From Candidatus Poriferisocius sp. (GTDB taxonomy: Bacteria > Actinomycetota > Acidimicrobiia > Acidimicrobiales > Bin134): a stretch of DNA of 64,000 nucleotides. Location: the NCBI RefSeq assembly GCF_965214065.1, contig NZ_CBDCAT010000024.1:5345-69344 (forward strand), given 5' to 3'. A program made the translations under genes and the position numbers. The notes beneath the pieces are model-generated. The model saw only the letters and a program-made list of their open reading frames with translations. It was not told the origin of the DNA and did not search any database. Positions 5,551 to 44,177 of the stretch are shown here, one piece after another (the first letter of the stretch is position 1; the number at the start of each line of letters is the position of its first letter).

Positions 5551-6897
5551 TCAGGCGACCTTGCCGGGGCCAGACCCGCCGTTTCTGGTGAAGGGCCGCG
5601 GCGGGCGGCGAAGCAGATTAACTGCCATAGCCGACGCCCGCATGGGCCACGGTGCCCACTCGCCCTGCTCGTCAACCGGCACGCCTTCTCGGGCCACAAT
5701 CCGCCACCCGGTATAGGCCACCACCACCGCATGGGCGCCCACCAGCACCAGGAAGAATGTCCAGGGAGCGGTCAGCGCCATGACCACACCACCGATCACC
5801 GGTCCGAGAATCGAGCCGACTCCGGCGGTTCGCACCAGCGCGGCGCTGGCGCCGTTGAGCTGTGATGTCGGCACCCGGTCGCCGGCAAAGGCAAGGGCCA
5901 GCGAGTATAGGGGGAAGGTGGCGCCTCCGAAGCAGAACATGAGCACCAGCGACAGAGCCGACCCTGGTTCAACCAAGGGCATAATCCCGGCAATGGATGC
6001 GGCCGCGGCGGCAACCACGAAGATCACTGCGCGGCGCGACACCCGATCAGACAACGACCCCAGCGGCCACTGGAAGGCCATGGCCCCGGCAGTGGCCGAC
6101 ACCAGGAACAGGGCGATCCGAGACGTTGGCAGTCCCTCGTTGGCGGCGTAGACCGCGCCCAACCCGAGCAGTGTTCCGTGGCTGATGCCAGCACACAGGG
6201 CGGTGAGCACGCCGAGGGGCGCCAAGGAGATGAGCTGGCGCATCGACAGCGGCTCGGGCACGGTGAGGGGGGGAGCGCTGGTGGCCGACAACGTGATGGG
6301 AACCAGCGCGGCGGAGATGAGCACCGAGGAGATCACGAACAGCTCGAAGCCCTCGGGGTCGGCGCCGTTCAGCAGCAACTGGCCGAGGGTGAGCCCGCCC
6401 ATCGACGAAACCATGTACATCGAGAGCAGTCGCCCCCGGGTGGAGTTGGTGGCCATGTCGTTGAGCCACGACTCCACCACCACCAAGACACCGGCTATGC
6501 ACACGCCGAATACCAACCGCAAAAGGGCCCAGGCGGTGGGGTTGATCCACAAGAGGTGGAGGATGGACACCGCGGAGGCCGTCGAGGCCAGCGCCGCGAA
6601 CACCCGGATGTGGCCCACCGCGGCCAGAAAATGCTCGGCCAGGCGGGTCCCGACCAAGAATCCGAAGAAGAAGCTGGCCATGACGATGCCGCTCACGGCC
6701 AGGCCGAATCCCTCCGATTCGGTTCGCACACCGAGCAGCACTCCCTGGAGGCCGCCGCCCACCTGTATGAACAGCATTCCGAACAGCAAGGCTCGGGCCG
6801 CACCCAGGCCGCGCCCTTGCGGCCCAGCCTCGATCAAGGGACCGCCCACGACTCCACCGTCGTCATCTTCTAGCCACCCGACGGCGTTCTCGGCCAC
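5551..6897 (-). CDS. MFS transporter
   Basis: 448 aa, about 12 hydrophobic segments, MFS loop motif GSLSDRVSRR. Confidence 0.85.
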   Translation of the reverse strand: MAENAVGWLEDDDGGVVGGPLIEAGPQGRGLGAARALLFGMLFIQVGGGLQGVLLGVRTESEGFGLAVSGIVMASFFFGFLVGTRLAEHFLAAVGHIRVFAALASTASAVSILHLLWINPTAWALLRLVFGVCIAGVLVVVESWLNDMATNSTRGRLLSMYMVSSMGGLTLGQLLLNGADPEGFELFVISSVLISAALVPITLSATSAPPLTVPEPLSMRQLISLAPLGVLTALCAGISHGTLLGLGAVYAANEGLPTSRIALFLVSATAGAMAFQWPLGSLSDRVSRRAVIFVVAAAAASIAGIMPLVEPGSALSLVLMFCFGGATFPLYSLALAFAGDRVPTSQLNGASAALVRTAGVGSILGPVIGGVVMALTAPWTFFLVLVGAHAVVVAYTGWRIVAREGVPVDEQGEWAPWPMRASAMAVNLLRRPPRPFTRNGGSGPGKVA

Positions 6898-7125
6898 TGC
6901 CGATCAGCCTATCGGTGTGCTTGCGATTTCCAACCGGAAAACGCGGTGGGATTCAGCCATCTCGAGTCGGGCGACGGCCACCCCCTGCCTCACGATCCCG
7001 AGGACACCACTAGAGCCTTCACACCGGCCTCATGCACCAAAGTGAGGGTGCCAACGCCTTTGCCGCCTACGTCCCCAACGCTGTCATCGCCGTCCGGGGC
7101 ACCTCGGACTTGGGGTAGTAAGGCG

Positions 7126-8290: not shown

Positions 8291-8365
8291 GCCCACGTAG
8301 CTCAGTCAGGACAGAGCAGGGACCTCCTAAGTCCAAGGTCGCAGGTTCGAATCCTGCCGTGGGCG
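8291..8365 (+). tRNA. tRNA-Arg (anticodon CCT)
   Basis: Hand-folded cloverleaf. Acceptor GCCCACG/CGTGGGC, D stem GCTC/GAGC, anticodon loop CTCCTAA, T arm GCAGG-TTCGAAT-CCTGC. No encoded CCA. Confidence 0.9.
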
Positions 8366-8368
8366 CTT
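8346..8368 (+). repeat. attL core (tRNA 3' end) of GI-1
   Basis: Identical 23-mer recurs at 21480-21502. Confidence 0.85.
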
Positions 8369-8492: not shown

Positions 8493-8512
8493 TGGGGGAT
8501 GGATTGGGGGAT
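8493..8512 (+). promoter_or_regulatory. Direct TGGGGGAT repeats (12-bp phase), candidate integrase arm-type sites
   Basis: TGGGGGAT at 8493 and 8505, immediately 5' of the integrase ATG. The same motif pair occurs at 21408/21420 and 44652/44664. A diverged triplet TGTGGGAC/TGTGGGAC/TGGAGGAC lies at 27418/27430/27442. Confidence 0.5.
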
Positions 8513-8516
8513 GGGA

Positions 8517-9669
8517 ATGTCGCTTTTGACCGCTGTAGAAGTCAAGAACGCCGGTGTGGGAAAGCGCCATGACGGGCGCGGATTATTTCTGCGGGTGTAC
8601 AAATCGGGGTCGAGGTGCTGGGTTCTGCGCCTGACCGTGGACGGGCGCCGCCGAGAGATCGGCTTGGGCGGCTGGCCCGCGGTGGGCCTGGCCGATGCCC
8701 GCCGCAAAGCGCACGAGCACCGCGTGGCCGCCGCCGACGGGCGCGATCCGCTCGCCGACAGGCGCCGCTGCGACGTGCCGGTGTTCAGAGAGGCGGCGAG
8801 GATCGTGTGGGAGGCGAACAGGGCCCGGTGGCGCAACGAGCGGACCGCGACTTTGTGGTGGGCGTCGCTGGAGAACCACGCCTTTGCGGCCATCGGCGAC
8901 ATGGCCGTGGACCGCATCACCCAGTCCGACGTTTTGGGGTGTGTGGAGCCGATCTGGACGACGCGCACTGAGACGGCCCGCAAGGTCCGCCAGAGGATCC
9001 GCACCGTGTTGCGCTGGTGCCAGGCCCACGGCTATGTAACAGTGAACGTGGCCGGCGAGGTCATCGACGGCGCACTGCCGCCCATGCCGCGCGTAAAGGC
9101 CCACTTCCGCTCCCTGCCCTATGTCGAGGTCGCCGACGCGCTCGGCGTGGTGGACCGCACCGGAGCATCGGCGTCGGCCAAGCTGTGCCTGCGCTTCGCC
9201 GTGTTGACCGCGGCCCGCTCTGGGGAGGCCCGCAACGCCTCATGGTCAGAGATCGACTTTGCCGCCAGCGAGTGGCGCATCCCCGCCGACAAGATGAAAG
9301 CCGCAACCGAGCACCGGGTGCCCCTCAGCGACGCCGCCCTCGACCTGCTCGACCGCGCCAAAGACAACCACGACGGCTCCGATCTGGTGTTCCCCTCCCC
9401 CCCTCAGAGCCGGCCGCCCACTGTCGAACATGACGCTCACGAAAATCCTTCGCGACGCCGGCCTCGCCGACCGTGCCACCGTCCACGGATTCAGAGCCAG
9501 CTTCCGCACCTGGGCACTGGAGCAAACCGACACCCCCTGGGCAGTCGCAGAAGCCGCACTGGCCCACGCCCTCGGCGACTCAACCCAACAGGCCTACATC
9601 CGAGGCGACGCCTACACCAAACGCCGCCAGCTCATGGACCAATGGGCCCAATACCTGCAACAGCCATAG
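8517..9669 (+). pseudogene. P4-type tyrosine integrase (DUF4102 arm-binding N-terminus), frameshifted
   Basis: Collinear with the intact paralog at 27453..28610. The frame breaks at a C7 run (9397-9403); with C6 it would read FPSPLRAGRPLSNMTLTKIL like the paralog. The C-terminal catalytic part (HGFRASFRTW, QQAYIRGD) lies in frame +1 (9430..9669). Confidence 0.85.
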
Positions 9670-9690
9670 AAGGGCCCCGGCGGGCTGACC

Positions 9691-11094
9691 GGGTCTGTCA
9701 GATTTTTTGTGTATGCGGGCGTGATGGTTTTCATTTGATGTGGTCGGCGATCCGGTCGCCGTAGTGGACGGTCAGCGTGTTCAGTATGGCCTTCCAGCCG
9801 TTGGTCTTGCCGGTGAGGTTGCTGCGGTTCTTTCGTTTGGCGGTGGCGACAAGGTAGAGGATCTTCATCGCGGCCTGCTCGTTGGGGAAGTGCCCTCTGT
9901 GCCGGACCGCTCGTCGGAACCGGGCGTTGAGGCTCTCGACGGCGTTGGTGGTGTAGACGACGCGGCGCAGCTCGGCGGGGAACTCCAGGAACGGTGTGAA
10001 CTCGGTCCAGCTGTTGCGCCAGGCTCGGATCATGGCCGGGTAGGTGTCCTCCCAGTCTTCGGCGAAGGCCTCGAAGAGTGCCTCGGCGGCCCCGACGGTG
10101 GGGGCGGTGTAGATCTCCCGCATTGATCGGGTGATCGGCCCCCTGTGCGTCTTGGACGCGTACCTGAGGCTGTTGCGGACCATGTGCACCACGCAGGTCT
10201 GCACCACCGCGTCGGGCCAGGTGGCGCGGATCGAGTCGGGCAGGCCTTTGAGCCCGTCGCAGCACACGATCAACGCGTCGGCCAGGCCCCGGTTGCGGAG
10301 CTCGCCCAGCATGGCCGCCCACTGCTTGGCGCCCTCGCCGCCCGATGGGCCCAGCCACAGGCCCAAGACGTCGCGCTCGCCTTGGAGATCGACGCCGATG
10401 GCGACATAGACGGGCCGGTTCGCGACCTGCGAGTCGCGGACCTTGACCACTATCGCGTCGATCAGCAGAACCGCATAGACCGCGTCGAGGGGGCGGTTCT
10501 GCCACACGGCCATGTCGGAGACGATCTCGTCGGTGATCTTCGAAATCGTCTCCCTGCTCACCGAGGTGTCGTAGATCTCGGCCAGGTGCGCCTGGATCTC
10601 GCCGGTGGTGAGCCCCTTCGCATAGAGACTGATCACGTTGCCCGACAAACCGTCCAAGCGGCGCCGGTGCTTGGGCACCGTGACGGGCTCGAACGTCCCC
10701 GCCCGGTCGCGCGGCACCCGAAGGTCGATCTCGCCGATCTCGGTGGTGACCCGCTTGGGCGAAGAGCCGTTGCGCGAGTTCCCCGACCCCCGGCCCTCCG
10801 GGGCGTGGCGCTCATAGCCCAAATGGTCGGCCATCTCGACCTCCAAGCCCGTCTGGAGGACCTGGCGGACAAGCCCCGTCAACAGCCCCCCGTCGCCGGT
10901 CAGATCCACGCCATCGGCGCGGGCCCGCTCGACCAACAGCTCGGCCCAGTCCTGCATCGCCGCCTCACCGGCGGCCTCGTCCGCCGACACCGCCGGCATA
11001 TCCTGATCAGTCATAGACATGATCCTTCCCGGCCCGCAGCACCAAACCGCGGACCCTCAGATCACGCCCGATACACAAAATTCCTGACAGACCC
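9691..11094 (-). mobile_element. IS256-family insertion sequence
   Basis: Imperfect terminal inverted repeats of about 34 bp: GGGTCTGTCAGATTTTTTGTGTATGCGGGCGTGAT (9691-9725) versus the reverse complement of 11061-11094. No obvious 8-bp target duplication. Confidence 0.85.
9731..11020 (-). CDS. IS256-family (Mutator-type) transposase
   Basis: 429 aa, typical IS256 transposase layout including CCDGLKGLPDSI. Confidence 0.9.
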   Translation of the reverse strand: MSMTDQDMPAVSADEAAGEAAMQDWAELLVERARADGVDLTGDGGLLTGLVRQVLQTGLEVEMADHLGYERHAPEGRGSGNSRNGSSPKRVTTEIGEIDLRVPRDRAGTFEPVTVPKHRRRLDGLSGNVISLYAKGLTTGEIQAHLAEIYDTSVSRETISKITDEIVSDMAVWQNRPLDAVYAVLLIDAIVVKVRDSQVANRPVYVAIGVDLQGERDVLGLWLGPSGGEGAKQWAAMLGELRNRGLADALIVCCDGLKGLPDSIRATWPDAVVQTCVVHMVRNSLRYASKTHRGPITRSMREIYTAPTVGAAEALFEAFAEDWEDTYPAMIRAWRNSWTEFTPFLEFPAELRRVVYTTNAVESLNARFRRAVRHRGHFPNEQAAMKILYLVATAKRKNRSNLTGKTNGWKAILNTLTVHYGDRIADHIK

Positions 11095-11543: not shown

Positions 11544-12060
11544 CAGGGCCCGCAAGCTGCACCCTGATCCAACAACACCGAATCGGCTCCTAGCCGCAGC
11601 GCCATAGATCGACGCAGCACCTTGGTGCAGGCGTGTGGACGGAAATCGCCCTCTGTTCGCTGCTGGTGCTCGATGGGAGCTTCGGCCTGTGGTGATTCTG
11701 TGTGCTGGGGTGTTTCAGGCTGGGCTGGGCACCTTGGTTGGCTCATTGAGGTCGTCGGTTCCAGGTTCGCTCTGTGCGGTTTCGTCGAATGGCTCATGGT
11801 TCGACATGGAGTGCGCCAGCGATTTTCTGGGGCTGGCAGACCTCCACCCTTCGAGGGCGACGGCCGCGGCGAATTCGACCCCAACGGCCAAATCAGTGCG
11901 ATGACCGCATGAGCCCAACCACAACAAATCCGAGTGTCACTGTTGGGTCTGCCGGGGCCCTCAGCCGGGGGGTTACGGTCCGGTCCTGCGCTCGGCGTTG
12001 ACTCCACAAGATATTGGCCTTGTGCCTGTTGTCAGACGTGTCGCGTCGAGTGTGGGGCCG

Positions 12061-12126
12061 GCAGGAGCGCTTTTGTCTTGAAGGGAGCCTGATCATCTCG
12101 ACTCGGTTGTGACGAAGCGCTCCTGC
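12061..12126 (+). ncRNA. Candidate structured RNA in the IS110 left end (bridge-RNA-like)
   Basis: Perfect 12-bp inverted repeat GCAGGAGCGCTT (12061-12072) / AAGCGCTCCTGC (12115-12126) encloses 42 nt. It ends 43 nt before the IS110 transposase ATG. Confidence 0.35.
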
Positions 12127-12169
12127 GGTTCCCGGACCACCGGAACATAACTTCCAGCAGGAGCACAGC

Positions 12170-13255
12170 ATGACATTTCCAGTCGGGGGCATCGACCCCC
12201 ACCAAGACACCTTCACCGTCGGCATCGTCAACCGCCACGGCGTCGAGATCGTCTGTGAGACCTTCTCGAACACCGCGGCCGGCTACGGCGAGGCGATCGA
12301 TTTGCTCGACTCTCACACCGTCCGCCAGGTCGGCGTCGAGGGCTCGGCCAAATGGGGAGCGCACGTCGCGATCGCGTTGTGCGCGGCAGGGTTCGACGCC
12401 CGCGAGGTCCCCGCGTCGCGCTCAGCGGCCCAGCGCCGCTCGCGGCGCCTGGAAAAGACCGACGCCGTCGACGCGGTCGCCTCAGCGCGCGCCTTGTTGG
12501 CCGAGCCCGAGCTGGGACCCGTCCAAGCACTGGAGGTCTACGACCCGCTCGTCGCCGAGATCGAAGCGGTGCTCGAGCACCGCCGAGCCCTGGTAGCAGC
12601 CAGAACACTCATGCTGCACCACACCGCCGACCAGATCTCCAAGCTCCCCACCGAGGTCCGCGACCAGCTCGACACCGGCGGCAAGATCGAAGGCCGGCTA
12701 CGGCGCCTCGAACACATCGACCCCGCTTGTGCGGCCACCCCCTCGGGCGCGTACCGGCTCGCATGGCTCCAGAACTTCATCGACCAAGACCGCGCCGCCC
12801 GCAGCGAGATCCGCCGATTGGAACGGCTCATCGACGAGCTGCTCGACCGTCACGGCACCACCCTGCGCGACGAACCAGGCATCGGCCCCATCTCAGCAGC
12901 CACCCTGGTGTGCGAGGTCGGAGACCCCCACCGGTTCGGCAGCGAGTCCAAATTCGCCCGCTGGTGCGGCACCGGCGCCGTCGCGCTTTCCTCCGGTGAA
13001 GGCACAGGCAACCCAATCAAACACCGCCGCGACTTTCGGGGCAACCGGCGCATCAACAGCGTGCTCCACATCGCGTCGGTCACCCAGGCCCGACAACAGC
13101 CTGACGCGGTCGCCTACCTCGCCCGCAAAGCCGCCGAAGGCAAGACCCGACGCGAAGCCCGCCGAGCCCACAAACGCCACCTCGCCAACCGCGTCATACG
13201 CCGAATGTGGCGCGACGAACAAACCCGAAAACAACCCCTCGCACACGCCGCTTGA
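12170..13255 (+). CDS. IS110-family transposase (DEDD recombinase)
   Basis: 361 aa. N-terminal GIDPHQDTFTV DEDD motif and a C-terminal Transposase_20-like region (IPGIGP-type EPGIGPISAATLV). Confidence 0.9.
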   Translation: MTFPVGGIDPHQDTFTVGIVNRHGVEIVCETFSNTAAGYGEAIDLLDSHTVRQVGVEGSAKWGAHVAIALCAAGFDAREVPASRSAAQRRSRRLEKTDAVDAVASARALLAEPELGPVQALEVYDPLVAEIEAVLEHRRALVAARTLMLHHTADQISKLPTEVRDQLDTGGKIEGRLRRLEHIDPACAATPSGAYRLAWLQNFIDQDRAARSEIRRLERLIDELLDRHGTTLRDEPGIGPISAATLVCEVGDPHRFGSESKFARWCGTGAVALSSGEGTGNPIKHRRDFRGNRRINSVLHIASVTQARQQPDAVAYLARKAAEGKTRREARRAHKRHLANRVIRRMWRDEQTRKQPLAHAA

Positions 13256-13310
13256 CAAGGGAGCGTCCGACAGACCCCTTCCCTCGGTTTGTCCAGCGGG
13301 ACCTAAGGAG

Positions 13311-14146: not shown

Positions 14147-17080
14147 TCAGCTGCAGCGCTCCACCTCGGTATCGCCTATTTTGTTCTTCTCGCCCTTAGG
14201 CTTTGCCTGAGTGCCGATGTCATACCAACCGGCGCTGGGAACTTCGAACTCCGCCGACGCGCCAGCAGCTTCAGGCCTGTTCTCGTGATGCCCGCCGCTC
14301 TTGATCTCCGTCACCCACACCTGAACCGGCAGGTTCGCCGGAGACTTGGCCCAAGACACAGAGATTACCCAAGCAGAACTCGTCCGCGAACACGAGACCG
14401 ACTCGAATACCAGTGACGCCCTAGGCGTCGGTGTCGGCGTAGCGGTTGGCGTCGGCTTGGCCGGAGAAGCGGTACCGTCTATCCAATTCGAGAACCCTCC
14501 GGCGTTGAAAGCCGCCACTCTCACCTCATAGGGCGAACCGTTGGAAAGCCCCGTAATCGTGTGCGAAGTGGCCAGATCCGAGCCGTACTCTAGATCCTTG
14601 TATTGGGCGGCTGCCTCGGCCTGGTCCCACGTCTGGGAGGCCTGCTTCCACTGCACCTGATATCCGAACTCCGCAGCCGGCGTATCCGACGACGCCGTCC
14701 AAGAAACCTTTATCTGCTTGTCTCCAGCAGTCAGCAACAAATCCGAAGCAGGTCCAGGAGGGTTCGAAACTGTATCATGCTTGGAATCCCCAGAAGTGTC
14801 GTCAGGATTAGGGGTTGGGGTTGGGGTTGGCGTGCGGAATGGAGGCGGCGGTGTAGGCGTAGCGTCTGGGTTGGTGCTAAGTGCATCGCAGGCCTTTTCA
14901 AGGAACTCGCCCAAGAACAGGCTGCCTGCAAGTTCGTAGAGAGTCTTATAGGGGCTATTGCTAACGTAGTTGATGGACATGCCAGTAACATTCGATGCAG
15001 TGAACTTGCCGTCTGAAGTACAACCCGACTTGAGTATCGCGTCTTGATGTGTGCCGTAGTTGCTTCGCCGTCGCGAACACTGATATTCGAGCGCTTTGTC
15101 AATTATGTACGATGTTCCTATAGCGACGTAAGCGTTTCCACCAGTGAACACTGTAGCTCCTAGTGTAACCAAGTTTTCTGTTAGGAATTGCCCTGTCTCG
15201 GTGCAGATAGCCTTCATTGTTGCGTCATATGCTGTTTTCAAACCGTCCGAGATGGTCTCGCCTATGTCAATGAACACATTTAGGATATTTCCAGTTGTAC
15301 CCTTGTCTTCTATGGCCTTATAGCAATCATGGTTATTGTCTAGTTGTTCCCACTCACCAGGATTGGCAGAGGCAACTTTTCCGCTCTTGTAAAATTCGTT
15401 CAGTTGTTCGTGTGTCATGACTTCAGGAGTTGCAGATGTATACACGAAGTAAATTAATGGTAGTGGTAGTGACAAGTTTTGGTATCCCGCTGGGCAGTTG
15501 TGCGGGTCGTGTTTGGTGGTGGTTGTGTGTGGTTTGCGGTCTGTGGTGGTTGTGACGCATTTGTTGTCGGCGTTGGGGGGTGTTTCGTCGTCGCATGTGT
15601 AGGTGACTCGTTGTCTGTGTATGCATTTGGTGCCTGACAATCTACTGTCTTCGTCACAGGTGTAGGCGGGCCGGGTTTTGCATTTGGTGCCTGACCGGGT
15701 GCTGCCTTCGTTGCATGTGTAGGCGGGCCGGGTTTTGGTGGTGCATTCGTTGTCGGTGTTGGGGGTCGAGTTGTCGGCGCATGTGTAGGTCACCGACGAG
15801 GGAGGGCGCGTGTGGACGCATTTGCCGGCCGACTCGTCTCCTATTTTGCATTCCGGGTCGGTGTAGGTGGTCTTGATGCAGTAGTCGCCCTGGAGGGTTT
15901 CGCCGCTGTCGCAGTCCGGGTCGGTGTAGGTGGTCTTGACGCAGTAGTTGCCCTGGAGGGTTTCGCCGCTGTCGCAGTCCGGGTCGGTGAGGGCTGTGTC
16001 TGTGCATCTATTGCCCGACAGGGACCCTTTCGCGCATGTCGGGTTTGTCCGGCTGGTGGTCGTGCAGGTGCCCCGGTTGGAGTCGAGGGCAGCCGCGCTC
16101 GACGTGCAGTAGGGGGTGGCGACGGTGTGCCGGTAGCAGAAGTCGCCTTTCTTGCTGTAGCCGCTGGGGCAGACCTTGCTGGTTGAGGTTTGAGCGGACA
16201 CGTTGATGCAGGCTCCCCAAAGAAGAACGTATCCCGCTGGGCATTGGGCCACCTGAGTTTCTACGCAAACGGGGATGCCGAAAGCCCCGGTGCCGAGCTT
16301 GCCCGAGGCGCACCGCCATGACGCCGCGGTGGTCGTGGTGGTGACGCACTTGCCGTTTCGCAGGCTGCCGCTGGCGCAGATCGGAGTTCCGGTATCTACG
16401 GTGGTTGCACACTTGCCGAACACCAAGTTGCCGCTGGCGCACGTGGCGACCTCGGAGGTGGTGGTGGCGCACTTGCCGTTTCGCGGGCGGCCGCTGGCGC
16501 AGGTCGCTATCTCGGAGGTGGTGGTGGCGCACTTGTTGTTGGAGTTGGGGGGCGACCCGTCGCCGCAGGCCGGTGTTCCCACGGTGCGCTCGCATACTTC
16601 CAAGACGCTCTGGCCGACGAGGGTGTACCTCTTCAAGTCATAGCCGGTATCGCAGACCGGCGTGGAGATTGCAGGCCTCGTCGTCACGCACCACCCGCTC
16701 TGGTCCGGCACACAACTCGCCTCAGCGTCCGTCACGCACCACCCGTCCTGGTCCGGCACACAACTCGCCTCGGCGTCCGTCTCGGTGACGCACACCAAGC
16801 CATAGTCCGGCACACAACTCGCCTCAGCGTCCGTCACGGTAGTCGTCGTCTTTACACACCGCTCGGCGACCCCAGACGACGGGGCGCTGTCCTCCAGGTC
16901 GTACCCATCGGGGCACGTCGTCACAGTCTCGGGCTCGTGGGCCTGGGCGGCGGGAACAGCGATCGCGCTGAACAAAACAGCAGCCACAACGAACACGACA
17001 AGCCCTCCGGCCCGCCGTTTCCTGAACCCGGCCCCGCTAGCAGTCGGATACGGACGGTGAGGCTTTGTCGATGCGGACAT
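14147..17080 (-). CDS. Large secreted Cys-rich modular repeat protein with FN3 domain
   Basis: Start set at ATG 17080 (AGGAGG RBS). The N-terminal signal/anchor is GGLVVFVVAAVLFSAIAVPAAQA. Three families of Cys-pair repeats are present: TDAEASCVPDxxGWCV, GKCATTTSExATCASG and TYTDPDCDSGETLQGxYC. There is a low-GC central domain, a P/T linker, and an FN3-like region (IKVSWTAS...YEVRVAAFNAGG). Confidence 0.8.
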   Translation of the reverse strand: MSASTKPHRPYPTASGAGFRKRRAGGLVVFVVAAVLFSAIAVPAAQAHEPETVTTCPDGYDLEDSAPSSGVAERCVKTTTTVTDAEASCVPDYGLVCVTETDAEASCVPDQDGWCVTDAEASCVPDQSGWCVTTRPAISTPVCDTGYDLKRYTLVGQSVLEVCERTVGTPACGDGSPPNSNNKCATTTSEIATCASGRPRNGKCATTTSEVATCASGNLVFGKCATTVDTGTPICASGSLRNGKCVTTTTTAASWRCASGKLGTGAFGIPVCVETQVAQCPAGYVLLWGACINVSAQTSTSKVCPSGYSKKGDFCYRHTVATPYCTSSAAALDSNRGTCTTTSRTNPTCAKGSLSGNRCTDTALTDPDCDSGETLQGNYCVKTTYTDPDCDSGETLQGDYCIKTTYTDPECKIGDESAGKCVHTRPPSSVTYTCADNSTPNTDNECTTKTRPAYTCNEGSTRSGTKCKTRPAYTCDEDSRLSGTKCIHRQRVTYTCDDETPPNADNKCVTTTTDRKPHTTTTKHDPHNCPAGYQNLSLPLPLIYFVYTSATPEVMTHEQLNEFYKSGKVASANPGEWEQLDNNHDCYKAIEDKGTTGNILNVFIDIGETISDGLKTAYDATMKAICTETGQFLTENLVTLGATVFTGGNAYVAIGTSYIIDKALEYQCSRRRSNYGTHQDAILKSGCTSDGKFTASNVTGMSINYVSNSPYKTLYELAGSLFLGEFLEKACDALSTNPDATPTPPPPFRTPTPTPTPNPDDTSGDSKHDTVSNPPGPASDLLLTAGDKQIKVSWTASSDTPAAEFGYQVQWKQASQTWDQAEAAAQYKDLEYGSDLATSHTITGLSNGSPYEVRVAAFNAGGFSNWIDGTASPAKPTPTATPTPTPRASLVFESVSCSRTSSAWVISVSWAKSPANLPVQVWVTEIKSGGHHENRPEAAGASAEFEVPSAGWYDIGTQAKPKGEKNKIGDTEVERCS
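15852..15990 (-). repeat. 63-bp in-frame tandem repeat (2.2 copies) inside the surface protein gene
   Basis: Units at 15852-15914 and 15915-15977 differ at 2 positions, plus a partial third copy. They encode the TYTDPDCDSGETLQGxYC modules. Confidence 0.8.
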
Positions 17081-17110
17081 GAGGCGGCCCTCCTGAAGGG
17101 ATCGGAAATG

Positions 17111-17131
17111 CGGCGGATATATGCCTTTATT
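17111..17131. repeat. IR-L of candidate invertible segment
   Basis: CGGCGGATATATGCCTTTATT. Its reverse complement occurs at 17463-17483 with 1 mismatch (20/21). Confidence 0.75.
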
Positions 17132-17462
17132 CGCCGCGTTCAGGCCCCTTGGGATGTGGAAGAGGTCGCTGGGGTTGCGGGCGCGGGACCCGCGCCCAAG
17201 CTGGGGATTCGCCAGACCGAGACGAGCAGCCGGAGCGGTGAGGCGTTCTTGGTCCTGGCTCTGCGGCGGCTGTGCTCTTGGCACCGGCCCCGTGCCGGTC
17301 GGCGTCTTGTGCGTGGCGGGGGGCCTCTTCGCCCAGCGGAGTCGGCCTGCTGGCTCGGTCCCTGTTTTGCCTGGTCGGCGGGGGTATTGCATGTTCGCCG
17401 TTGGGGCTGTGCCGTGTGGTGTTTGGGGAGGGGTTGACAGCATCTCTGGTTCTGAGCTAGGC

Positions 17463-17483
17463 AATAAAGGCATTTATCCGCCG
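17463..17483. repeat. IR-R of candidate invertible segment
   Basis: AATAAAGGCATTTATCCGCCG, the reverse complement of IR-L with 1 mismatch. Both arms translate to NKGIYPP in the ORF track. Confidence 0.75.
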
Positions 17484-17529
17484 GGTTGCAAGCTGTTGAC
17501 CAGGCTTTTCTCCTGGTTGTCGGCTGGGC

Positions 17530-18621
17530 TTGCACAGCGGGTGTGGGCTAGACATCGGCGGTGAATCCAACCACCACCCCCCCCCCGGCCATATGTGCTC
17601 GCATAGCGCCTCGGATGCCGGTGCTGGTCTTTGCTGTGTCAAGGGGCTGATCGCCCGGGCCGACGCCTCAGCGTTGTCTTTGAACACCCGAAAGACCTAT
17701 GAGACCGGGTGGAACAGCTGGGCCCGGTGGGCGGCGTCGAACGGTTACCGGGTTTCCAAGCCGACAGTCGAGAGGCTCCGGGACTGGCTGGCCTGCCTGC
17801 ATTTGGAGGGGAAGAAGCCCTCTACTTTGCGCACCTACCTGGCCGCTGTCGCCCACCGCCTACGCGGCCGCCGCGGCCCCAACCCGGCCCGCCACCCCCG
17901 CGTTAGCCTGCTGCTGGCAGGGCTTGCCCGCTACGCCGCTGAGCGCGGCGTCGCAACCCGGCAGGCCCAAGGGCTGCGCTGGGAGCGCATACTGCTGATC
18001 GAGGCCGCCGCACCCGCCTCGAGGCGCAATCAGCCCGGCGGGCGGCTGGAAACCCCCCAACAAGCCCGAAAACGCGCTGACACAGACATCGCCATGGCCG
18101 CCGTGGGCCACAACGGCGCCCTCAGGTGCTCGGAGCTGTTGGCCCTCACCTGGGGCGCTGTCGACTTCTCCGAAGGGCCGGGGCTGGCCACCATATGGAT
18201 CGGCCGCTCCAAGACCGACCAGAACGGCAAAGGCGCGGCCGTTCCCATCTCCGAATACGCCGCCCAAGCCCTCGCCCGATTGAGGCCAGAGGACTTCGAT
18301 CCCGACGCCCGCATATTCGATTTCTCGCCCAGCACCGCCCGCCGGCGCCTAAAAGCCGCCGCGAAAGCCGCAGGCATCGACCCCGCCGGGATCTCCACCC
18401 ACTCCCTGCGCGTCGGCATGGCCCAAGACCTCGCCGCCTCAGGAACAGGCACAATCGGCCTCATGCTCGCAGGCCGATGGGACACCACCGAAACCGCCGC
18501 CCAATACGCCCGCCGCCTCCAAGCCCAACACACCCCCGCCGCCCAATACCTCAAAACCCAACTCGCCGTGACAACAGGCCAATCCGAGCCCGGCGAAACC
18601 CGCAGACCGCAGGCAGCGTGA
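17530..18621 (+). CDS. Tyrosine recombinase (XerC/D / phage-integrase family); start uncertain
   Basis: N-terminal SAM-like core-binding region (LSLNTRKTYETGWNSW) and catalytic HSLRVGMAQDL and AAQYARRL (Tyr). Alternative start at ATG 17593. A C10 tract lies at 17577-17586. Confidence 0.8.
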   Translation: MHSGCGLDIGGESNHHPPPGHMCSHSASDAGAGLCCVKGLIARADASALSLNTRKTYETGWNSWARWAASNGYRVSKPTVERLRDWLACLHLEGKKPSTLRTYLAAVAHRLRGRRGPNPARHPRVSLLLAGLARYAAERGVATRQAQGLRWERILLIEAAAPASRRNQPGGRLETPQQARKRADTDIAMAAVGHNGALRCSELLALTWGAVDFSEGPGLATIWIGRSKTDQNGKGAAVPISEYAAQALARLRPEDFDPDARIFDFSPSTARRRLKAAAKAAGIDPAGISTHSLRVGMAQDLAASGTGTIGLMLAGRWDTTETAAQYARRLQAQHTPAAQYLKTQLAVTTGQSEPGETRRPQAA

Positions 18622-18917
18622 CACCCAGCGGCACTGAGTAGGCGGCCGATGGTCTGCAGATTCGCCTGCAAGAACGGGGTCTGGGACGGCTGGGACAACA
18701 TCGATCGAGCTATTGTCGAAGGCGCTGACCGCGTCGCCGCAGCCGCTCTCGCGGAACGCCTCAAGATGGCGAACGCAGGAATCTTCGGTGTCGACTCGGA
18801 AGGCGAGCGATCAGGCAGTCGAGCCCGCGGCGAGGCGGTGGAAGCCGTGCGGAGCCTTGCGTTGGCCCAAAAGAGCGGTCAACACCGAATCGGCTGGTGC
18901 TAGCGCGTCCGCGTCCG

Positions 18918-18966
18918 GACCGGTCGCGTCGCAGGTTGCGCCGGTTTGCGACCGGTTGCGACCGGT
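18918..18966 (+). promoter_or_regulatory. TTGCG(A/C)CCGG repeat cluster upstream of the AlpA-like gene
   Basis: Three tandem direct copies (18936-18944, 18946-18955, 18956-18965) plus one inverted copy (18920-28). Homologous clusters lie at 21179-21259 and 44496-44530. Confidence 0.5.
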
Positions 18967-18979
18967 ATTGCATTGCAGG

Positions 18980-19330
18980 ATGGTGGCCATGGAAGCCGAT
19001 GCTCGTGAAATCCATGAAATCCTGTCGACCCGCCGTCAGGTCGAGGCGCGTGGCGGGCTGTCCACCAGTTCTATCTACCGGTTCATGCGATATGGCCTGT
19101 TCCCAAATCCGGTCCGCGTCGGCAGGCGCGCTGTGCGCTGGCATGTGTCGGAGACCGACGCATGGGTCTCATCGCGCCCCCGCGCCGCCGGCGGCCGCCC
19201 CGCCGCACGGGCAACCGGTTATCCGTGTCGAATCCCGGCGCTAGTGCCGCAAGAGGCGGCCAAGGGCTGGGCTGTGGGGTGGGCAGGCAGCGGCAGCCGC
19301 CAACGGGGAGGCAGTCGGATATGGGCGTGA
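18980..19330 (+). CDS. AlpA/excisionase-family HTH DNA-binding protein
   Basis: MVAMEADAREIHEILSTRRQVEARGGLSTSSIYRFMRYGLFPNPVRVGRRAVRWHVSETDAWV matches the AlpA/Xis winged-HTH pattern (GLSxSxIYR...G.FP.P...G.R.v.W...E...W). Confidence 0.7.
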   Translation: MVAMEADAREIHEILSTRRQVEARGGLSTSSIYRFMRYGLFPNPVRVGRRAVRWHVSETDAWVSSRPRAAGGRPAARATGYPCRIPALVPQEAAKGWAVGWAGSGSRQRGGSRIWA

Positions 19331-19758
19331 GGCGCTCATCGGCGCAGCGGAAGCGCTTGGCGTTGGAGGCGAAGAGGCGCGGCGTTGATGCCGTGGCCAG
19401 ACAGGCTGGCGTCGAGCCCGGCACTGTGCGGGTCTGGCGTGCCGAGTTCGGCGTGGGCATTGGTACCAGGGGCAGCAGCCAGGCTGCGGCCGCTCCTGGT
19501 CACGAGGTTGACTTGCTTGAGGCAGCGGCTTGCGGCCTCGACGACTTCGCGGATTCCAATAGCATCCAAGAAATGGGCGGTTTGGTCAAAAAGGCGGGGG
19601 ACGCGCTGTCTTGTGAGCTGTCGGCTTGGCTTGGCGATGCCGACAGCAGGGAGCTTGCCTCAAAGAGGCTGGGAGAAGTGATCTCCGACTGGGAGGCTGA
19701 GCACGGCGCGGTTACCGCCGAAGAGCTTGACGAGGCGCGGGCCCAGCTCTTTGGATGA
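19321..19758 (+). CDS. HTH protein / putative antitoxin of a degraded PIN toxin pair
   Basis: 145 aa with an N-terminal HTH (VARQAGVEPGTVRVWRAEFG). Its stop overlaps the following PIN ORF start by ATGA (19755-19758). Confidence 0.5.
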   Translation: MGVRRSSAQRKRLALEAKRRGVDAVARQAGVEPGTVRVWRAEFGVGIGTRGSSQAAAAPGHEVDLLEAAACGLDDFADSNSIQEMGGLVKKAGDALSCELSAWLGDADSRELASKRLGEVISDWEAEHGAVTAEELDEARAQLFG

Positions 19759-40874: not shown

Positions 40875-43800
40875 TCACAGAAGGGTGGTGCTGTTAGGGA
40901 CCGTTGGTTTCTTTGCTGCTTTCGCGGTGACGGGAATGATGCCGTTGTCTTCAAGTTCTGCTGTGGAGATCAGCGGGCCAGAGAGCACGCGGTCGAGAAG
41001 GTTTGCCTGCTTGGTCTCCAGGTCGGCGAGCATTGTCAGCACGTTGATGAGTTGGAGCAGTTCTGTTGTGAATTCCGCCGTCCAAGTTCTCTGTGTGATC
41101 TTGTCGAGATCGGAGGAAGGATTTCCCTCAGGTTCCTTCTTTCGGGAGCGGAACCAGTTCCTTAGGGCGTTCACGCCCGACACTTCGTAGGTCCAGGCTG
41201 ATTCTTCGACGGGGCCTATGGTGCCCTCCCCGACAATGAGTTCCTTGCTTAAGGGGTTGTAGTCGATCTCGTTCGGCATTTCTTGTTCAGAGGTTGGTAT
41301 CGACTTGAGCACCTTGGGTCGACGCGGAGGCTCCAGATGTGGTGGCCTGCGGGGCCTGCTGCCGCTGTCATCGACGAATCGCTCGCCATATGTGTGGAGC
41401 CAGATGACTTCGGCTCCGATGTTCGCTGCCTCTCGATACAGCGCTCTGTCTCCGGTGAGGGGAACTCTTAGGCCAGGGGTTTGGAGGCCGACAAGTAGCC
41501 GCTCTGTATATGCGGGGGCACCGGCAATTGCAGCGACATAGGCAAACAGTTCCCGTGGTGAGGTGGTCTCGTTATGGACCGTGGCAATGAAGTCGAGGAG
41601 TCCGGGTGCAATGTTCGGGGAGGATGCACTGGGATCGCGCCAAAGGGGGAACACCCTGCCGCCGCGACCGTGATAGTGGTCTAGGTCTGGGACCAGCCCG
41701 GAGAACGTGATCGCCGGGCCGGACTTGGGAACCGTGCGGTGAATGGCGGTCAGATACACCTGGTTGTCGCCGCGCACATACCAGAGGGACGGGTTGGGCT
41801 GGTTGATTACCCGCTTGTCGGCGATCAGGTGTTGGCGGTCGAATGACCGAAACGCGATTGGCTCGGTCGGGCAATTAGCATCTTTCTCGTGGCCGAGTGA
41901 GGTCTTCGGGGGGTCGTATCCCCATAGGTTGTCCTCCAATCTCGTGTCCAGAGTCCTGTCTCGGGGGTGGGGGTCGAGAAGTTCGGATTTCTCCTCGCGG
42001 TCCGTTTCCCCGATGAGTTTTGACCAGCGGGCTTTGAGAACTTTGCTGTTGGGTCCGATCACCCATCTTCGTCCGGGCATGGTTCCTGAGCCGGACCAGG
42101 GGAAGAGGTCGTCCAGCGCTGGGTAGGATGCCCAATCTGGCGACCCTTCGGGCGTGAGTGGTGCCTTCCACTCGGTTGGCGCGAGGAACCATTGGGAGTT
42201 GTCGTCCGGGTCTAGTGATGACAGCTCTAGGAACTTTTCTGTGCGGTGGCCGGGATTGAGCTGTCTGAAGTGGACGGGGGCGGGGGTGTCCGAGTCTGTT
42301 GTCCCGTCTTTGAGGGCTATGACGACGCAGATCGGCTGCTGGACTCCTGGGAATACCCTGGTTGGAATATTTGGCTGGTGGCCTTCGGGGGTCGTGTCTA
42401 TGACCCATAGTTCGTCGGCTGTGCGCCTCAGGTAGTCGCGCATTTTGGCGAAGCCCGGCCCGCCCAAAAACCCCGAAGCGGTGACAAAGGAGATGATGCC
42501 GTTGGGGCTGTCCTCGTGGCGGTCAAACACCTTCCAAGATGCCCAGCGCCAGAAGTAGACGTAGGGGTTGTACAGGTGTTTGACATGTGTAGAGAGTTTC
42601 CACTCTGCGGGTGGCAGGAAGTCCTTGAGCGGCGGTTCGCTCGCCGACTTGTCGCCGGATTCGACCCATCCTCCCTTCCCCTTCGATCTCTCCTTGTAGG
42701 GGGGATTGCCGATGACCACGACGACAGGTTCGTCTGCCTTCACATTGTTGGCGTTGCGGCGCGATTGGGCGATGGGTTCGTACAGCGAGCCCAGCCGAGT
42801 CACCTCCACGAACGGGTCGTCGAGGGTGTTCGCGACGTAGAGCCGCAAGTCCTCCTCGGGTACATCGGCTCCCCGCCTGCGGTACTCCTCTGAAAGCCTG
42901 AGTTCCGCGACGCTGTACGGACCGGTCTGCAACTCGAAGCCGATGAGTCTCTTGGCTGCTGCTTCGAGCTGCGGCCCCACAGCCCCAGGTCCTTCTGAAT
43001 CTTCTACGGTTTGTGCTATCCGGTCGATGACCCGGAACAGGAAAGTGCCCGTTCCGCAGGCTGGATCGACAACGGTGACGCCTGGCGATGCGAGCCCTTG
43101 TTGAATCTTGAGGCGTGAGCGGAGAAGTCCGTCGGTGAGCTTCACCATTGAGTCGACCACCTCTACCGGGGTGTAGTAGCTCCCGGACTGCTTGCGTAGC
43201 TCGTTGTCGTACTCGGCCAGGAAGTCCTCGTAGAACAACAGCCATTTGTCGGGGTCGCCGTCGGACAGCCGGTCCCAGTCAACGACCGACAGGACCCGCA
43301 CGAGTGCCCAGACCGAGGTTGCGAGGCTGTCGAGGACTGTCTGGTCGGTGAGGAGCGACAGAGCCGTGCCGATCAGACCATGCCTGGTGTTGAGGTGCTT
43401 CGCTATCGAGTTGAAGTTTGGATTCTCCCCGTTCAGTGTGGCGGCGTTCAGGTCAATCCCTTCGACTCGCGCGAGGAGCAGAGCGAAAGTGATTGTTTGG
43501 GCGTATTGGTCTGCAAACTGCTTGTCTGTCGCCTCGGGATAGAGCAGGTCACGCCAGTCTGCCTGCAAGCTCTTCAATCCCGAGGAGCCGCCAATCAGCT
43601 CCAGCACCTCCAGCCTCAGGAGTCGGCACAGACGCGCCGTCGTCTCAGCCAGTTGCCGCACAGAAACAGGTGCAACGGGTTCCCACCCGAGGAAGTTGGA
43701 CAGCAGGAGTGCTAGCTCGGAGTCATCAGCGCTCAGGTCCGGGCCTGACTGGTCTACGTCACCCTGCAACCTCACGAGGCCGCCGACTCGATCGCCTTCC

Positions 43801-44177
43801 CGGTACAGGCCCCACTCGTTTCCGTCGGTGTACAAGATGTTTGGAAGCGCCGATAGGCGTTTCCACTGCTCCTTGTCATGCGCTTCTCGGAACCGCCTCG
43901 TGTCGGCCCCCTTGCCCGGAGCCTTCACCTCGATATGGCCCACAAGCAGTTGATCCACAAGCACGGCAAAGTCAGGCTTGACTCTCAAATCGCTAAGGGC
44001 GCTCTCACCCGCCAGCACGGGCACACCAATCCCAAGGGAGACCGCTATCCCGGTGACCAGGACTTCGACAGGAGCGCGAAGCTGCTCCTCCGGCTCTCCC
44101 AGCCCACTCTCTGACTTCTCTGTGACTGCGCGTCCGAATTCTGAGACGAGAGGCTGAAGTTCTGAAAGAGAGATCAA
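40875..44177 (-). CDS. Type IIG/IIL single-chain restriction-modification enzyme (PD-(D/E)xK nuclease + N6-adenine methyltransferase + specificity domain)
   Basis: 1100 aa. N-terminal KPDFAV...GHIEVKAPG nuclease motif, SAM motif I VVDPACGTGTFL, motif IV VIGNPPYKE. The long C-terminal region resembles MmeI/type-ISP-like specificity domains. GC is visibly lower than in the neighbours. Confidence 0.85.
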   Translation of the reverse strand: MISLSELQPLVSEFGRAVTEKSESGLGEPEEQLRAPVEVLVTGIAVSLGIGVPVLAGESALSDLRVKPDFAVLVDQLLVGHIEVKAPGKGADTRRFREAHDKEQWKRLSALPNILYTDGNEWGLYREGDRVGGLVRLQGDVDQSGPDLSADDSELALLLSNFLGWEPVAPVSVRQLAETTARLCRLLRLEVLELIGGSSGLKSLQADWRDLLYPEATDKQFADQYAQTITFALLLARVEGIDLNAATLNGENPNFNSIAKHLNTRHGLIGTALSLLTDQTVLDSLATSVWALVRVLSVVDWDRLSDGDPDKWLLFYEDFLAEYDNELRKQSGSYYTPVEVVDSMVKLTDGLLRSRLKIQQGLASPGVTVVDPACGTGTFLFRVIDRIAQTVEDSEGPGAVGPQLEAAAKRLIGFELQTGPYSVAELRLSEEYRRRGADVPEEDLRLYVANTLDDPFVEVTRLGSLYEPIAQSRRNANNVKADEPVVVVIGNPPYKERSKGKGGWVESGDKSASEPPLKDFLPPAEWKLSTHVKHLYNPYVYFWRWASWKVFDRHEDSPNGIISFVTASGFLGGPGFAKMRDYLRRTADELWVIDTTPEGHQPNIPTRVFPGVQQPICVVIALKDGTTDSDTPAPVHFRQLNPGHRTEKFLELSSLDPDDNSQWFLAPTEWKAPLTPEGSPDWASYPALDDLFPWSGSGTMPGRRWVIGPNSKVLKARWSKLIGETDREEKSELLDPHPRDRTLDTRLEDNLWGYDPPKTSLGHEKDANCPTEPIAFRSFDRQHLIADKRVINQPNPSLWYVRGDNQVYLTAIHRTVPKSGPAITFSGLVPDLDHYHGRGGRVFPLWRDPSASSPNIAPGLLDFIATVHNETTSPRELFAYVAAIAGAPAYTERLLVGLQTPGLRVPLTGDRALYREAANIGAEVIWLHTYGERFVDDSGSRPRRPPHLEPPRRPKVLKSIPTSEQEMPNEIDYNPLSKELIVGEGTIGPVEESAWTYEVSGVNALRNWFRSRKKEPEGNPSSDLDKITQRTWTAEFTTELLQLINVLTMLADLETKQANLLDRVLSGPLISTAELEDNGIIPVTAKAAKKPTVPNSTTLL

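Follow-up and report, generated by a model that had tools for sequence, protein, structure and literature searches.

A candidate invertible promoter with lox-like sites between a secreted fibronectin-III protein gene and a Cre-like recombinase gene in Candidatus Poriferisocius

In a stretch of 64,000 nucleotides from Candidatus Poriferisocius sp., an uncultured sponge symbiont of the Acidimicrobiia (assembly GCF_965214065.1, contig NZ_CBDCAT010000024.1, positions 5,345 to 69,344; the whole stretch is called the window here), the gene of a large secreted surface protein and the gene of a tyrosine recombinase are separated by two inverted repeats (IR-L and IR-R) that bracket 331 bp of DNA. No recognisable promoter is present between the surface-protein gene and IR-L. 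How is this gene transcribed, and is the bracketed DNA turned over by the enzyme encoded next to it? Our answer, which we hold with slightly more confidence than doubt, is that the 373-bp element at 17111-17483 is an invertible promoter (inverton) with lox-like sites, that it was assembled in the OFF orientation for the surface protein, and that it is served by the adjacent Cre-like recombinase, which is gated by a poly-C tract.

The two arms, CGGCGGATATATGCCTTTATT at 17111-17131 and AATAAAGGCATTTATCCGCCG at 17463-17483, are complementary at 20 of 21 positions and are 331 nt apart. With up to three mismatches allowed, the 21-mer was not matched again in the 64-kb window or in any of 100 dinucleotide-preserving shuffles, and thus the pair is non-random and unique. 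Judged from its sequence, its relatives and the co-variation of its core with that of IR-R, IR-L is a complete lox-like core site on the plus strand (17111-17136). It consists of an outer arm CGGCGGATAT (17111-17120), an asymmetric 6-bp core ATGCCT (17121-17126) and an inner arm TTATTCGCCG (17127-17136), all read on the plus strand. In most of the related loci described below the internal palindrome of IR-L is perfect around its asymmetric centre, CGGCGGATAA-ATGCCT-TTATCCGCCG, and the consensus form is CGGCGGATA(A/T)-ATGCCT-TTAT(C/T)CGCCG. IR-R (17463-17483, minus strand) is the partner site in inverted orientation, with its core AGGCAT at 17468-17473 and a good outer arm, TTATCCGCCG, at 17474-17483. 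Its outer arm and centre are the same as those of IR-L; its inner arm is degenerate and overlaps a −10 region.

The surface-protein gene (14147-17080, minus strand) encodes a secreted modular protein of 977 aa, as judged from its translation and a Pfam fn3 match. Its ATG is at 17080, exactly 30 nt from IR-L, and a Shine-Dalgarno sequence AGGAGG (CCTCCT on the plus strand, 17089-17094) lies 8 nt before the ATG on the minus strand. A Shine-Dalgarno sequence of the GGAG type is found at the same location in related loci.

The 331-bp segment proposed to invert (17132-17462) carries an outward-facing promoter-like element (17434-17463, plus strand) that points to the recombinase in the assembled orientation. 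It is composed of a −35 hexamer TTGACA (17434-17439), an 18-nt spacer and a −10-like hexamer TAGGCA (17458-17463) that abuts IR-R. The TTGACA was invariant in an alignment of 14 loci, and it is at the same location, ~24 nt inside IR-R, in all type A loci. The hexamer 18 nt after it, again abutting IR-R, has the form TAnnnA/nAnAAT, and TAnnnA was found in most loci. From this conservation we infer that TTGACA/TAGGCA is an active promoter. When the alignments were inspected by eye for a leftward promoter in the present orientation, no conserved −35/−10 pair was seen on the minus strand. A sequence-only reading of the window had already described the repeat pair with its positions, its 20/21 match and the 331 bp of bracketed DNA, the ATG at 17080 with its AGGAGG ribosome-binding site (RBS) and 30-nt gap to IR-L, and the TTGACA at 17434-17439 inside the segment and facing the recombinase, and each of these was found as described. 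It had also called the right-hand gene a tyrosine recombinase, in agreement with the Pfam matches (PF00589 and PF02899).

This gene (17593-18621, plus strand) encodes a Cre-like enzyme of 342 aa when counted from the annotated ATG, and the protein is 100% identical to P0001, a ‘tyrosine-type recombinase/integrase [Candidatus Poriferisocius sp.]’. By Pfam it has a SAM-like domain and a catalytic domain. In an alignment of 44 sequences R178, K207, H270, R273 and Y305 were invariant and W296 was conserved in at least 90%, and the window protein has the full R-K-H-R-W-Y set. Its closest solved relatives by sequence in the PDB were Cre/Tre (E ~1e-9), with a match that covers part of the protein only. 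The catalytic residues R-K-H-R-(H/W)-Y and the two-domain fold recognised by Pfam, together with arms around a matched asymmetric core, are the features of a Cre/lox-type system, and the recombinase is thus probably able to act on the repeats that it adjoins. Against the NCBIfam models of XerC, XerD and XerA the protein scored 25-32 bits, where the cut-offs are 220-335; the match to the XerA/integron-integrase model was likewise weak and far below its cut-off. Dimer resolution of the XerC/XerD kind does not fit scores so far under the cut-offs, nor the presence of several copies of the family per genome.

One genome per species was scanned with an alignment of 44 recombinase homologues. This gave 79 loci, all in metagenome-assembled genomes (MAGs), many of which are named for sponge-symbiont candidate genera. 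Further loci were added by look-ups of individual recombinase homologues. We counted as modules the loci that have a recombinase identity of at least 50% and an intact upstream region. There were ~28 distinct ones, and all ~28 have the same anatomy. Their recombinases are 50-81% identical and come from sponge-symbiont Acidimicrobiia, with several module loci per genome and at least four in the single chromosome NZ_OZ244791.1. In the module a minus-strand left gene is followed by IR-L, the segment with TTGACA ~24 nt before IR-R, IR-R itself, a leader of ~110-190 nt and the recombinase gene. The left gene has a Shine-Dalgarno sequence and a signal peptide ending in A-x-A-H-[D/E/P], with its start 24-35 nt outside IR-L. 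In three more distant loci the layout is the same and the segments are shorter (104-306 bp). Two loci, L016 (8791-9156) and L019 (11328-11692), are orphan switches that consist of the IR-flanked segment and the left gene with no recombinase on the IR-R side. Beyond IR-R they have AT-rich non-coding DNA, and the recombinase of L016 lies beyond the left gene, at a distance of ~1.9 kb.

The segment is conserved in length and poorly conserved in sequence. It is 323-335 bp long in most loci and 318 bp in L023, and between clades the interiors are at background similarity (~55-65% identity) with length and position kept. Within these diverged interiors two blocks are conserved, GCTGGGGATTCGC at 17200-17212 and CTGTTTTGCCTGGTC at 17362-17376, and they might be sites for accessory proteins or regulators. 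An Rfam search of 16950-17750 gave no meaningful match, and the alignment of close relatives gave no obvious sign of a conserved open reading frame (ORF) in the segment interior. Outside the Acidimicrobiia, relatives of the recombinase gene were also found in Dehalococcoidia, Gemmatimonadota and other MAGs. A blastn search of a plasmid collection with 16800-19400 gave no match, and a scan of viral contigs for the IR core gave 0 matches.

The left genes belong to one modular family, in which a leader and a C-terminal domain are common to nearly all loci. The family architecture comprises the shared leader, hypervariable repeats, a hydrophobic centre, one to five fn3 domains and the C-terminal domain of ~90 aa. 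As ORFs the left genes are intact, the longest encoding 1486 aa. The 977-aa protein has a signal peptide ending in AQAHEP, Cys-rich repeats, a central hydrophobic region, an fn3 domain (Pfam, E=3e-10) and the conserved C-terminal domain of ~90 aa; in the NCBI annotation the gene is represented only by a 684-aa fn3 protein (P0121). A homologue search with the 977-aa protein gave only four matches, the protein being too variable. The 5′ third of the gene contains 48-54-nt tandem repeats at 16683-16838, and its centre is unusually low in GC (52.5% at 15001-16000).

Are the repeats recombination sites? Over 22 loci, 88% of arm cells were paired, compared with 84% in shuffles (0 of 500 reached the observed value) and 36-46% when the partner was slid. 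Ten arm pairs or positions had changed on both sides. The 6-bp core has at least seven forms between loci (ATGCCT, ATGCCG, TTGCCT, TTGTCT, TTGCCG, TCGCCT and CTGCCG), and in 20 of the 22 loci the two arms carry the same form; mismatches between the arms were seen in the cores of L009, L023 and the L173 locus. The two end positions of the core vary independently of each other, and therefore they lie outside the binding palindrome. A short asymmetric core that evolves freely and yet has to match between partners is the overlap signature of tyrosine recombinases such as Cre, Flp and lambda Int. The co-variation of the core is what would be expected of a strand-exchange overlap matched between partner sites.

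Comparison of whole loci also places a junction at IR-L. The window and L160, which is from another assembly, are ~100% identical from 15485 to ~17140 (L160 302 to ~1960) and then 58-85% identical over the segment and recombinase. This identical block of ~1.65 kb covers the 5′ end of the surface gene, and its right edge is IR-L; further 3′ the gene is unrelated. Similarly, the left flank of L002 matches that of L006 (87%), yet its switch matches that of L001 (94-98%), and L003 and L007 have a common left flank (92%) but not a common interior (56%). The breaks in relatedness at IR-L show that the loci are mosaic and, as judged from these alignments, that the sites have recombined in nature.

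The same breaks also speak for a rival explanation, inter-locus exchange, in which the sites are true targets of the recombinase but the main reaction in vivo is something other than local flipping of the promoter: IR-L is a junction that reassorts surface genes and switch modules through large inversions and translocations, and IR-R is mainly an operator for autorepression of the recombinase. It would also account for the occurrence of one 6-bp core at several loci of a genome, for example ATGCCT in both L006 and L034, for the overlap of IR-R with the −10 and start region, and for the uniform orientation of the segment in ~28 loci. However, matched inverted sites 331 bp apart would be flipped by any Cre-like enzyme that is made, and an operator at IR-R needs no core identity with IR-L. 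The conserved spacing of 323-335 bp and a promoter that hugs the repeat are hallmarks of promoter invertons, and exchange leaves the target gene without any promoter. We therefore consider inter-locus exchange unlikely as the explanation of the pair, though it is the rival that survives best.

Inversion at sites of this kind was seen in more distant relatives. In Ca. Poriferisodalis and other Acidimicrobiia MAGs, recombinases at 36-39% identity are themselves flanked by homologous sites, AATTGCCGTTATCC and GGATAACGGCAATT. Here the segments are 1.2-1.5 kb long (~5560-7080 in each locus) and contain the recombinase gene. The segment is in one orientation in L033, L036 and L043 and in the opposite orientation in L045, L046 and L047, and comparison of L033/L036 with L045/L046/L047 shows a reciprocal exchange of both outer flanks that breaks at the IR cores. 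Therefore, such site pairs do invert DNA. L033 and L045 have, next to the site, a gene for an Eco57I/MmeI-type (Type IIG) restriction-modification (RM) enzyme; in L033 it starts ~38 nt from the site. These loci are a candidate phase-variable RM system of Ca. Poriferisodalis and related MAGs.

If the window element is a promoter inverton, it would work as follows. IR-L and IR-R would be two core sites in inverted orientation, each with ~10-bp arms around the 6-bp asymmetric core ATGCCT. In the assembled orientation the promoter would transcribe the recombinase, and the 977-aa fn3 gene would be without a promoter (OFF). Strand exchange between the cores would flip the 331-bp segment and bring the same promoter to ~24 nt inside IR-L. 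The surface gene would then be ON, with a leader of ~45 nt that carries AGGAGG, and the recombinase would be deprived of its promoter. The flipped molecule would read left gene - IR-L - TGTCAA... at one end and ...GGATAAAGGCATTTATCC - recombinase leader at the other. Segment flipping, the ON and OFF assignment and the slippage gate described next are what we infer for this locus.

The recombinase leader (17484-17592, plus strand) contains a weak hairpin, the RBS and start context and an interrupted poly-C tract. The sequence-only reading had begun the recombinase ORF at 17530, but that position is no more than the earliest TTG in the open frame, and in the public annotation the protein begins at the ATG at 17593. 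In relatives the leader has the form AGGAAAnCGGCG-ATG-AAR-CA-Cn, which reads M-K-H-P-P-P-P. A tract of C9-C24 directly after the RBS and start was found in all close relatives (L001-L013, L034, L160 and L166-L172). Loci with identical flanks have tracts of different lengths (C12, C16 and C18 in one group; C10, C13, C14 and C15 in another), and of the loci compared, 6 have the upstream ATG in frame with the recombinase and 16 have it out of frame. The clade of L003, L006, L009 and L010 has no alternative ATG 3′ of the tract, and therefore the tract must be translated there. In the window the start context is GGCTAGACATCGGCG-GTG, and this GTG, at 17561, is out of frame with the recombinase. The poly-C is interrupted (CCAACCACCA followed by C10 at 17577-17586), the ATG at 17593 comes after the tract without a Shine-Dalgarno sequence, and the hairpin (17498-17518) is weak and lacks a U-run. 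The relatives point to a conserved recombinase start upstream of the poly-C tract, which in the window corresponds to GTG 17561.

As in slipped-strand contingency loci, a homopolymer of at least ~8 nt is present in the 5′ coding region with a length polymorphism between loci that changes the frame. The poly-C thus looks like a slipped-strand gate on recombinase synthesis, and errors in homopolymer assembly may contribute to the length differences. Slippage in such a hypermutable tract, after the conserved upstream start, is a likely second layer of control, which would bring the enzyme into or out of frame. In the leaders of L001 (5857-5889), L002, L021 and L161 there is also a terminator-like hairpin with a U-run, which pairs the IR-R outer arm with a downstream CGGCGG(A/G)T copy. 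This hairpin may attenuate expression of the recombinase; alternatively, the downstream copy may serve as an additional half-site for binding.

Several observations weigh against an active inverton in the window. The inverted 331-bp segment was found in 0 of the ~28 loci of this architecture, and the promoter is always beside IR-R. The logic of the toggle predicts an absorbing ON state, in which the recombinase promoter is lost after the flip, and this is the opposite of what the assemblies contain. The −10 hexamer TAGGCA is without the canonical final T, and a consensus sigma-70 scan of the window and L001 called no promoter. The window arms differ at one position adjacent to the core, and this mismatch, the GTG upstream start and the interrupted poly-C suggest that the window copy may be sluggish or decaying. 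Moreover, the co-variation of the arms could in part have arisen because they co-evolve with the specificity of DNA binding by the recombinase, and not through strand exchange.

The sequence-only reading had proposed an inverton layout and a comparison of related genomes for both orientations. The layout stood as far as an IR-flanked, promoter-like segment between a promoter-less gene and a recombinase is concerned, since it is repeated in ~28 loci with co-varying arms; the comparison of orientations gave no inverted locus of the window architecture, which for related genomes is so far the outcome that this reading had named as a refutation, and opposite orientations were present only in the distant relatives with the recombinase inside the segment. 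Since an unbiased equilibrium would give about half of each orientation, any flipping must be infrequent or biased, or else it is selected against in adult sponge tissue or has been lost. We do not yet class the element as a demonstrated inverton because related genomes with the window architecture gave one orientation of the segment and not both. A search of a metagenome collection with a pattern specific to the inverted junction gave 0 matches, which carries no weight because no relative above 41-43% identity is present there. Among short Logan/ENA contigs with identical recombinases, five independent P0012 contigs begin 9 nt inside IR-R and one P0052 contig begins 6 nt inside it. These ends were ruled out as inverted junctions: the retained bases are in the normal orientation, and the ends are thus assembly breaks. 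Ten P0071 contigs lack the module entirely.

A uniform orientation could also mean that the element is a fossil, that is, that it descends from an active inverton and no longer flips in this lineage or at this locus, with the promoter driving the recombinase and nothing else and the surface gene silent or read from an unrecognised promoter. The absence of inversion in ~28 loci agrees with this, as do the GTG start, the interrupted poly-C and the one arm mismatch of the window, the core mismatches in L009, L023 and the L173 locus, and the degenerate relatives L004 and L030. However, compensated changes have preserved core identity in loci whose remaining sequence is down to background similarity, and the catalytic residues are invariant. 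The target ORFs are intact up to 1486 aa, which is unlikely for permanently silent genes. We judge a fossil switch a little less probable again than inter-locus exchange.

An integron-like platform, in which IR-L is an attI-type site that captures promoter-less surface-protein cassettes, would fit the gene adjoining IR-L, which is promoter-less and highly variable, and the break in relatedness at IR-L. It is very improbable, since no analogue of attC was found at the 3′ end of the left gene or elsewhere in the loci at up to three mismatches, each locus has one gene and no array, and the promoter faces away from the ‘cassette’. Least credible of all is a small mobile element, with the repeats as ends of a miniature inverted-repeat transposable element (MITE) or of a non-autonomous derivative of an IR-recombinase-IR unit: the distant relatives (IR-recombinase-IR, 1.2-1.5 kb, multi-copy) superficially resemble insertion sequences with terminal inverted repeats, but the MITE alternative named in the sequence-only reading is refuted by a pair that has only two sites in the window, by a segment that never occurs apart from its constant gene context, by interiors that have diverged to ~55-65% identity with length and position conserved, and by the reciprocal exchange of both outer flanks at one and the same chromosomal position in the distant relatives, which amounts to inversion and not to transposition.

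The promoter inverton that we favour resembles several known systems. In Bacteroides fragilis, invertible promoters with locally encoded tyrosine recombinases of the Tsr family control outer-surface proteins. Invertons are found in gut Bacteroidales generally (PMC7641763, PMC10403206). As in the Tsr systems, an IR-flanked, promoter-like segment lies beside its own tyrosine recombinase and a surface gene would be driven in one orientation, and many such loci are present per genome of a host-associated bacterium. In contrast to B. fragilis, the host here is one of the Acidimicrobiia, the enzyme is Cre-like, and the sites are full lox-like sites with a locus-specific 6-bp core. The other orientation appears to drive the recombinase, whose 5′ end carries a poly-C tract, and no inverted locus of the window architecture was found.

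Like the E. coli fimS/FimB/FimE system, the element is a promoter-like segment of ~300 bp next to a tyrosine recombinase proposed to flip it. The fimS segment is 314 bp long. Expression of the recombinase is coupled to orientation in fimS and would be so here, and a strong OFF bias, such as that given by FimE, is possible. However, fimS has 9-bp inverted repeats and depends on IHF and Lrp, and its two recombinases lie upstream on the same strand, whereas here one recombinase on the divergent side is combined with longer lox-like sites, and the promoter would be shared directly, unlike the indirect coupling of fimE and fimS.

Phage P1 Cre inverts DNA between inverted lox sites without accessory proteins. 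The window enzyme shares with Cre the W in place of the second His, and its sites are built, like loxP, of inverted arms on either side of an asymmetric core. With a sequence match that is weak (E ~1e-9) and partial, the enzyme is not a close relative of Cre. Unlike loxP (13-8-13), the sites have arms of ~10-12 bp, a core of apparently 6 bp and one degenerate inner arm, and the proposed role is gene switching, unlike the resolution of plasmid dimers by Cre-loxP. The distant relatives L033-L047, which carry the recombinase inside the segment and abutting the start of the controlled gene, are arranged as hin is for fljBA at the Salmonella hin/hix switch. Hin, however, is a serine recombinase and depends on Fis and an enhancer, and the window recombinase lies outside its segment.

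Homopolymer contingency loci have been described in Neisseria, Haemophilus and Campylobacter (reviewed in PMC11868660). The tract described here resembles them in that a long homopolymer of variable length lies just past the start codon and shifts the frame, and differs from them in that it would gate a site-specific recombinase and not a surface or RM gene directly. More broadly, and with rather more doubt than belief, we propose a two-tier, self-limiting stochastic switch as a family trait of sponge symbionts. In this proposal a poly-C-gated Cre-like recombinase would switch its only promoter back and forth between its own gene and that of a hypervariable, secreted, adhesin-like protein, related systems in other sponge-symbiont lineages would flip the recombinase gene beside Type IIG RM genes, and the locus-specific 6-bp cores would keep the switches independent. 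In a search of the literature that was not exhaustive, no homopolymer-gated recombinase of this two-tier kind was found. Nor did we find reports of invertons or tyrosine recombinases in Poriferisocius, in sponge Acidimicrobiia or with this family of surface proteins. The view in the sequence-only reading that no comparable case is known in high-GC actinobacteria was too broad, since genome-wide surveys of invertons list Actinobacteria among the main phyla (PMC11602134).

If the switch is active, many independent invertible switches would be at work in obligate, uncultured sponge symbionts; the loci described here are in Acidimicrobiia. Phase variation by inversion is known mainly from culturable pathogens and gut commensals. 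The switches would act on two classes of genes of importance to life in a filter-feeding host, those of RM enzymes, which serve in phage defence, and those of large fibronectin-III surface proteins, which are ‘eukaryotic-like’ and have a presumed role in interaction with the host. The recombinases would then form a natural family of Cre-like enzymes with many orthogonal lox-like cores, and one stochastic mechanism, repeat slippage, would control another, inversion. On the two-tier proposal, surface and defence variation would be programmed in uncultured, high-GC, non-pathogenic marine symbionts. The switch is directly testable with existing HiFi sponge metagenomes.

Around the locus, GC content is lower (~52-69% in window positions 8291-45000) than beyond 46 kb (70-77%). 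This lower-GC stretch begins at a tRNA-Arg(CCT) gene (8291-8366) with a P4-type integrase gene (8499-9764), and it contains the transposases IS256/Mutator (9731-11020) and IS110 (12170-13255). It also carries an AlpA-like ORF (18713-19330), a DUF4143 ATPase, two GmrSD-like genes, a UvrD-like helicase, an HNH protein, a KAP NTPase and a Type ISP RM enzyme (40875-44177), and it looks like an integrated defence island. Homology between the related loci stops at the stop codon of the recombinase. The AlpA-like ORF was therefore ruled out as a partner of the switch, since homology between loci ends before it and it is part of the island around the locus. An IS110-family element (11950-13277) close to the 3′ end of the surface gene is 84% identical to L023 11612-12946 (OZ224042.1), and that copy, in a different MAG, is a few kb from another switch locus.

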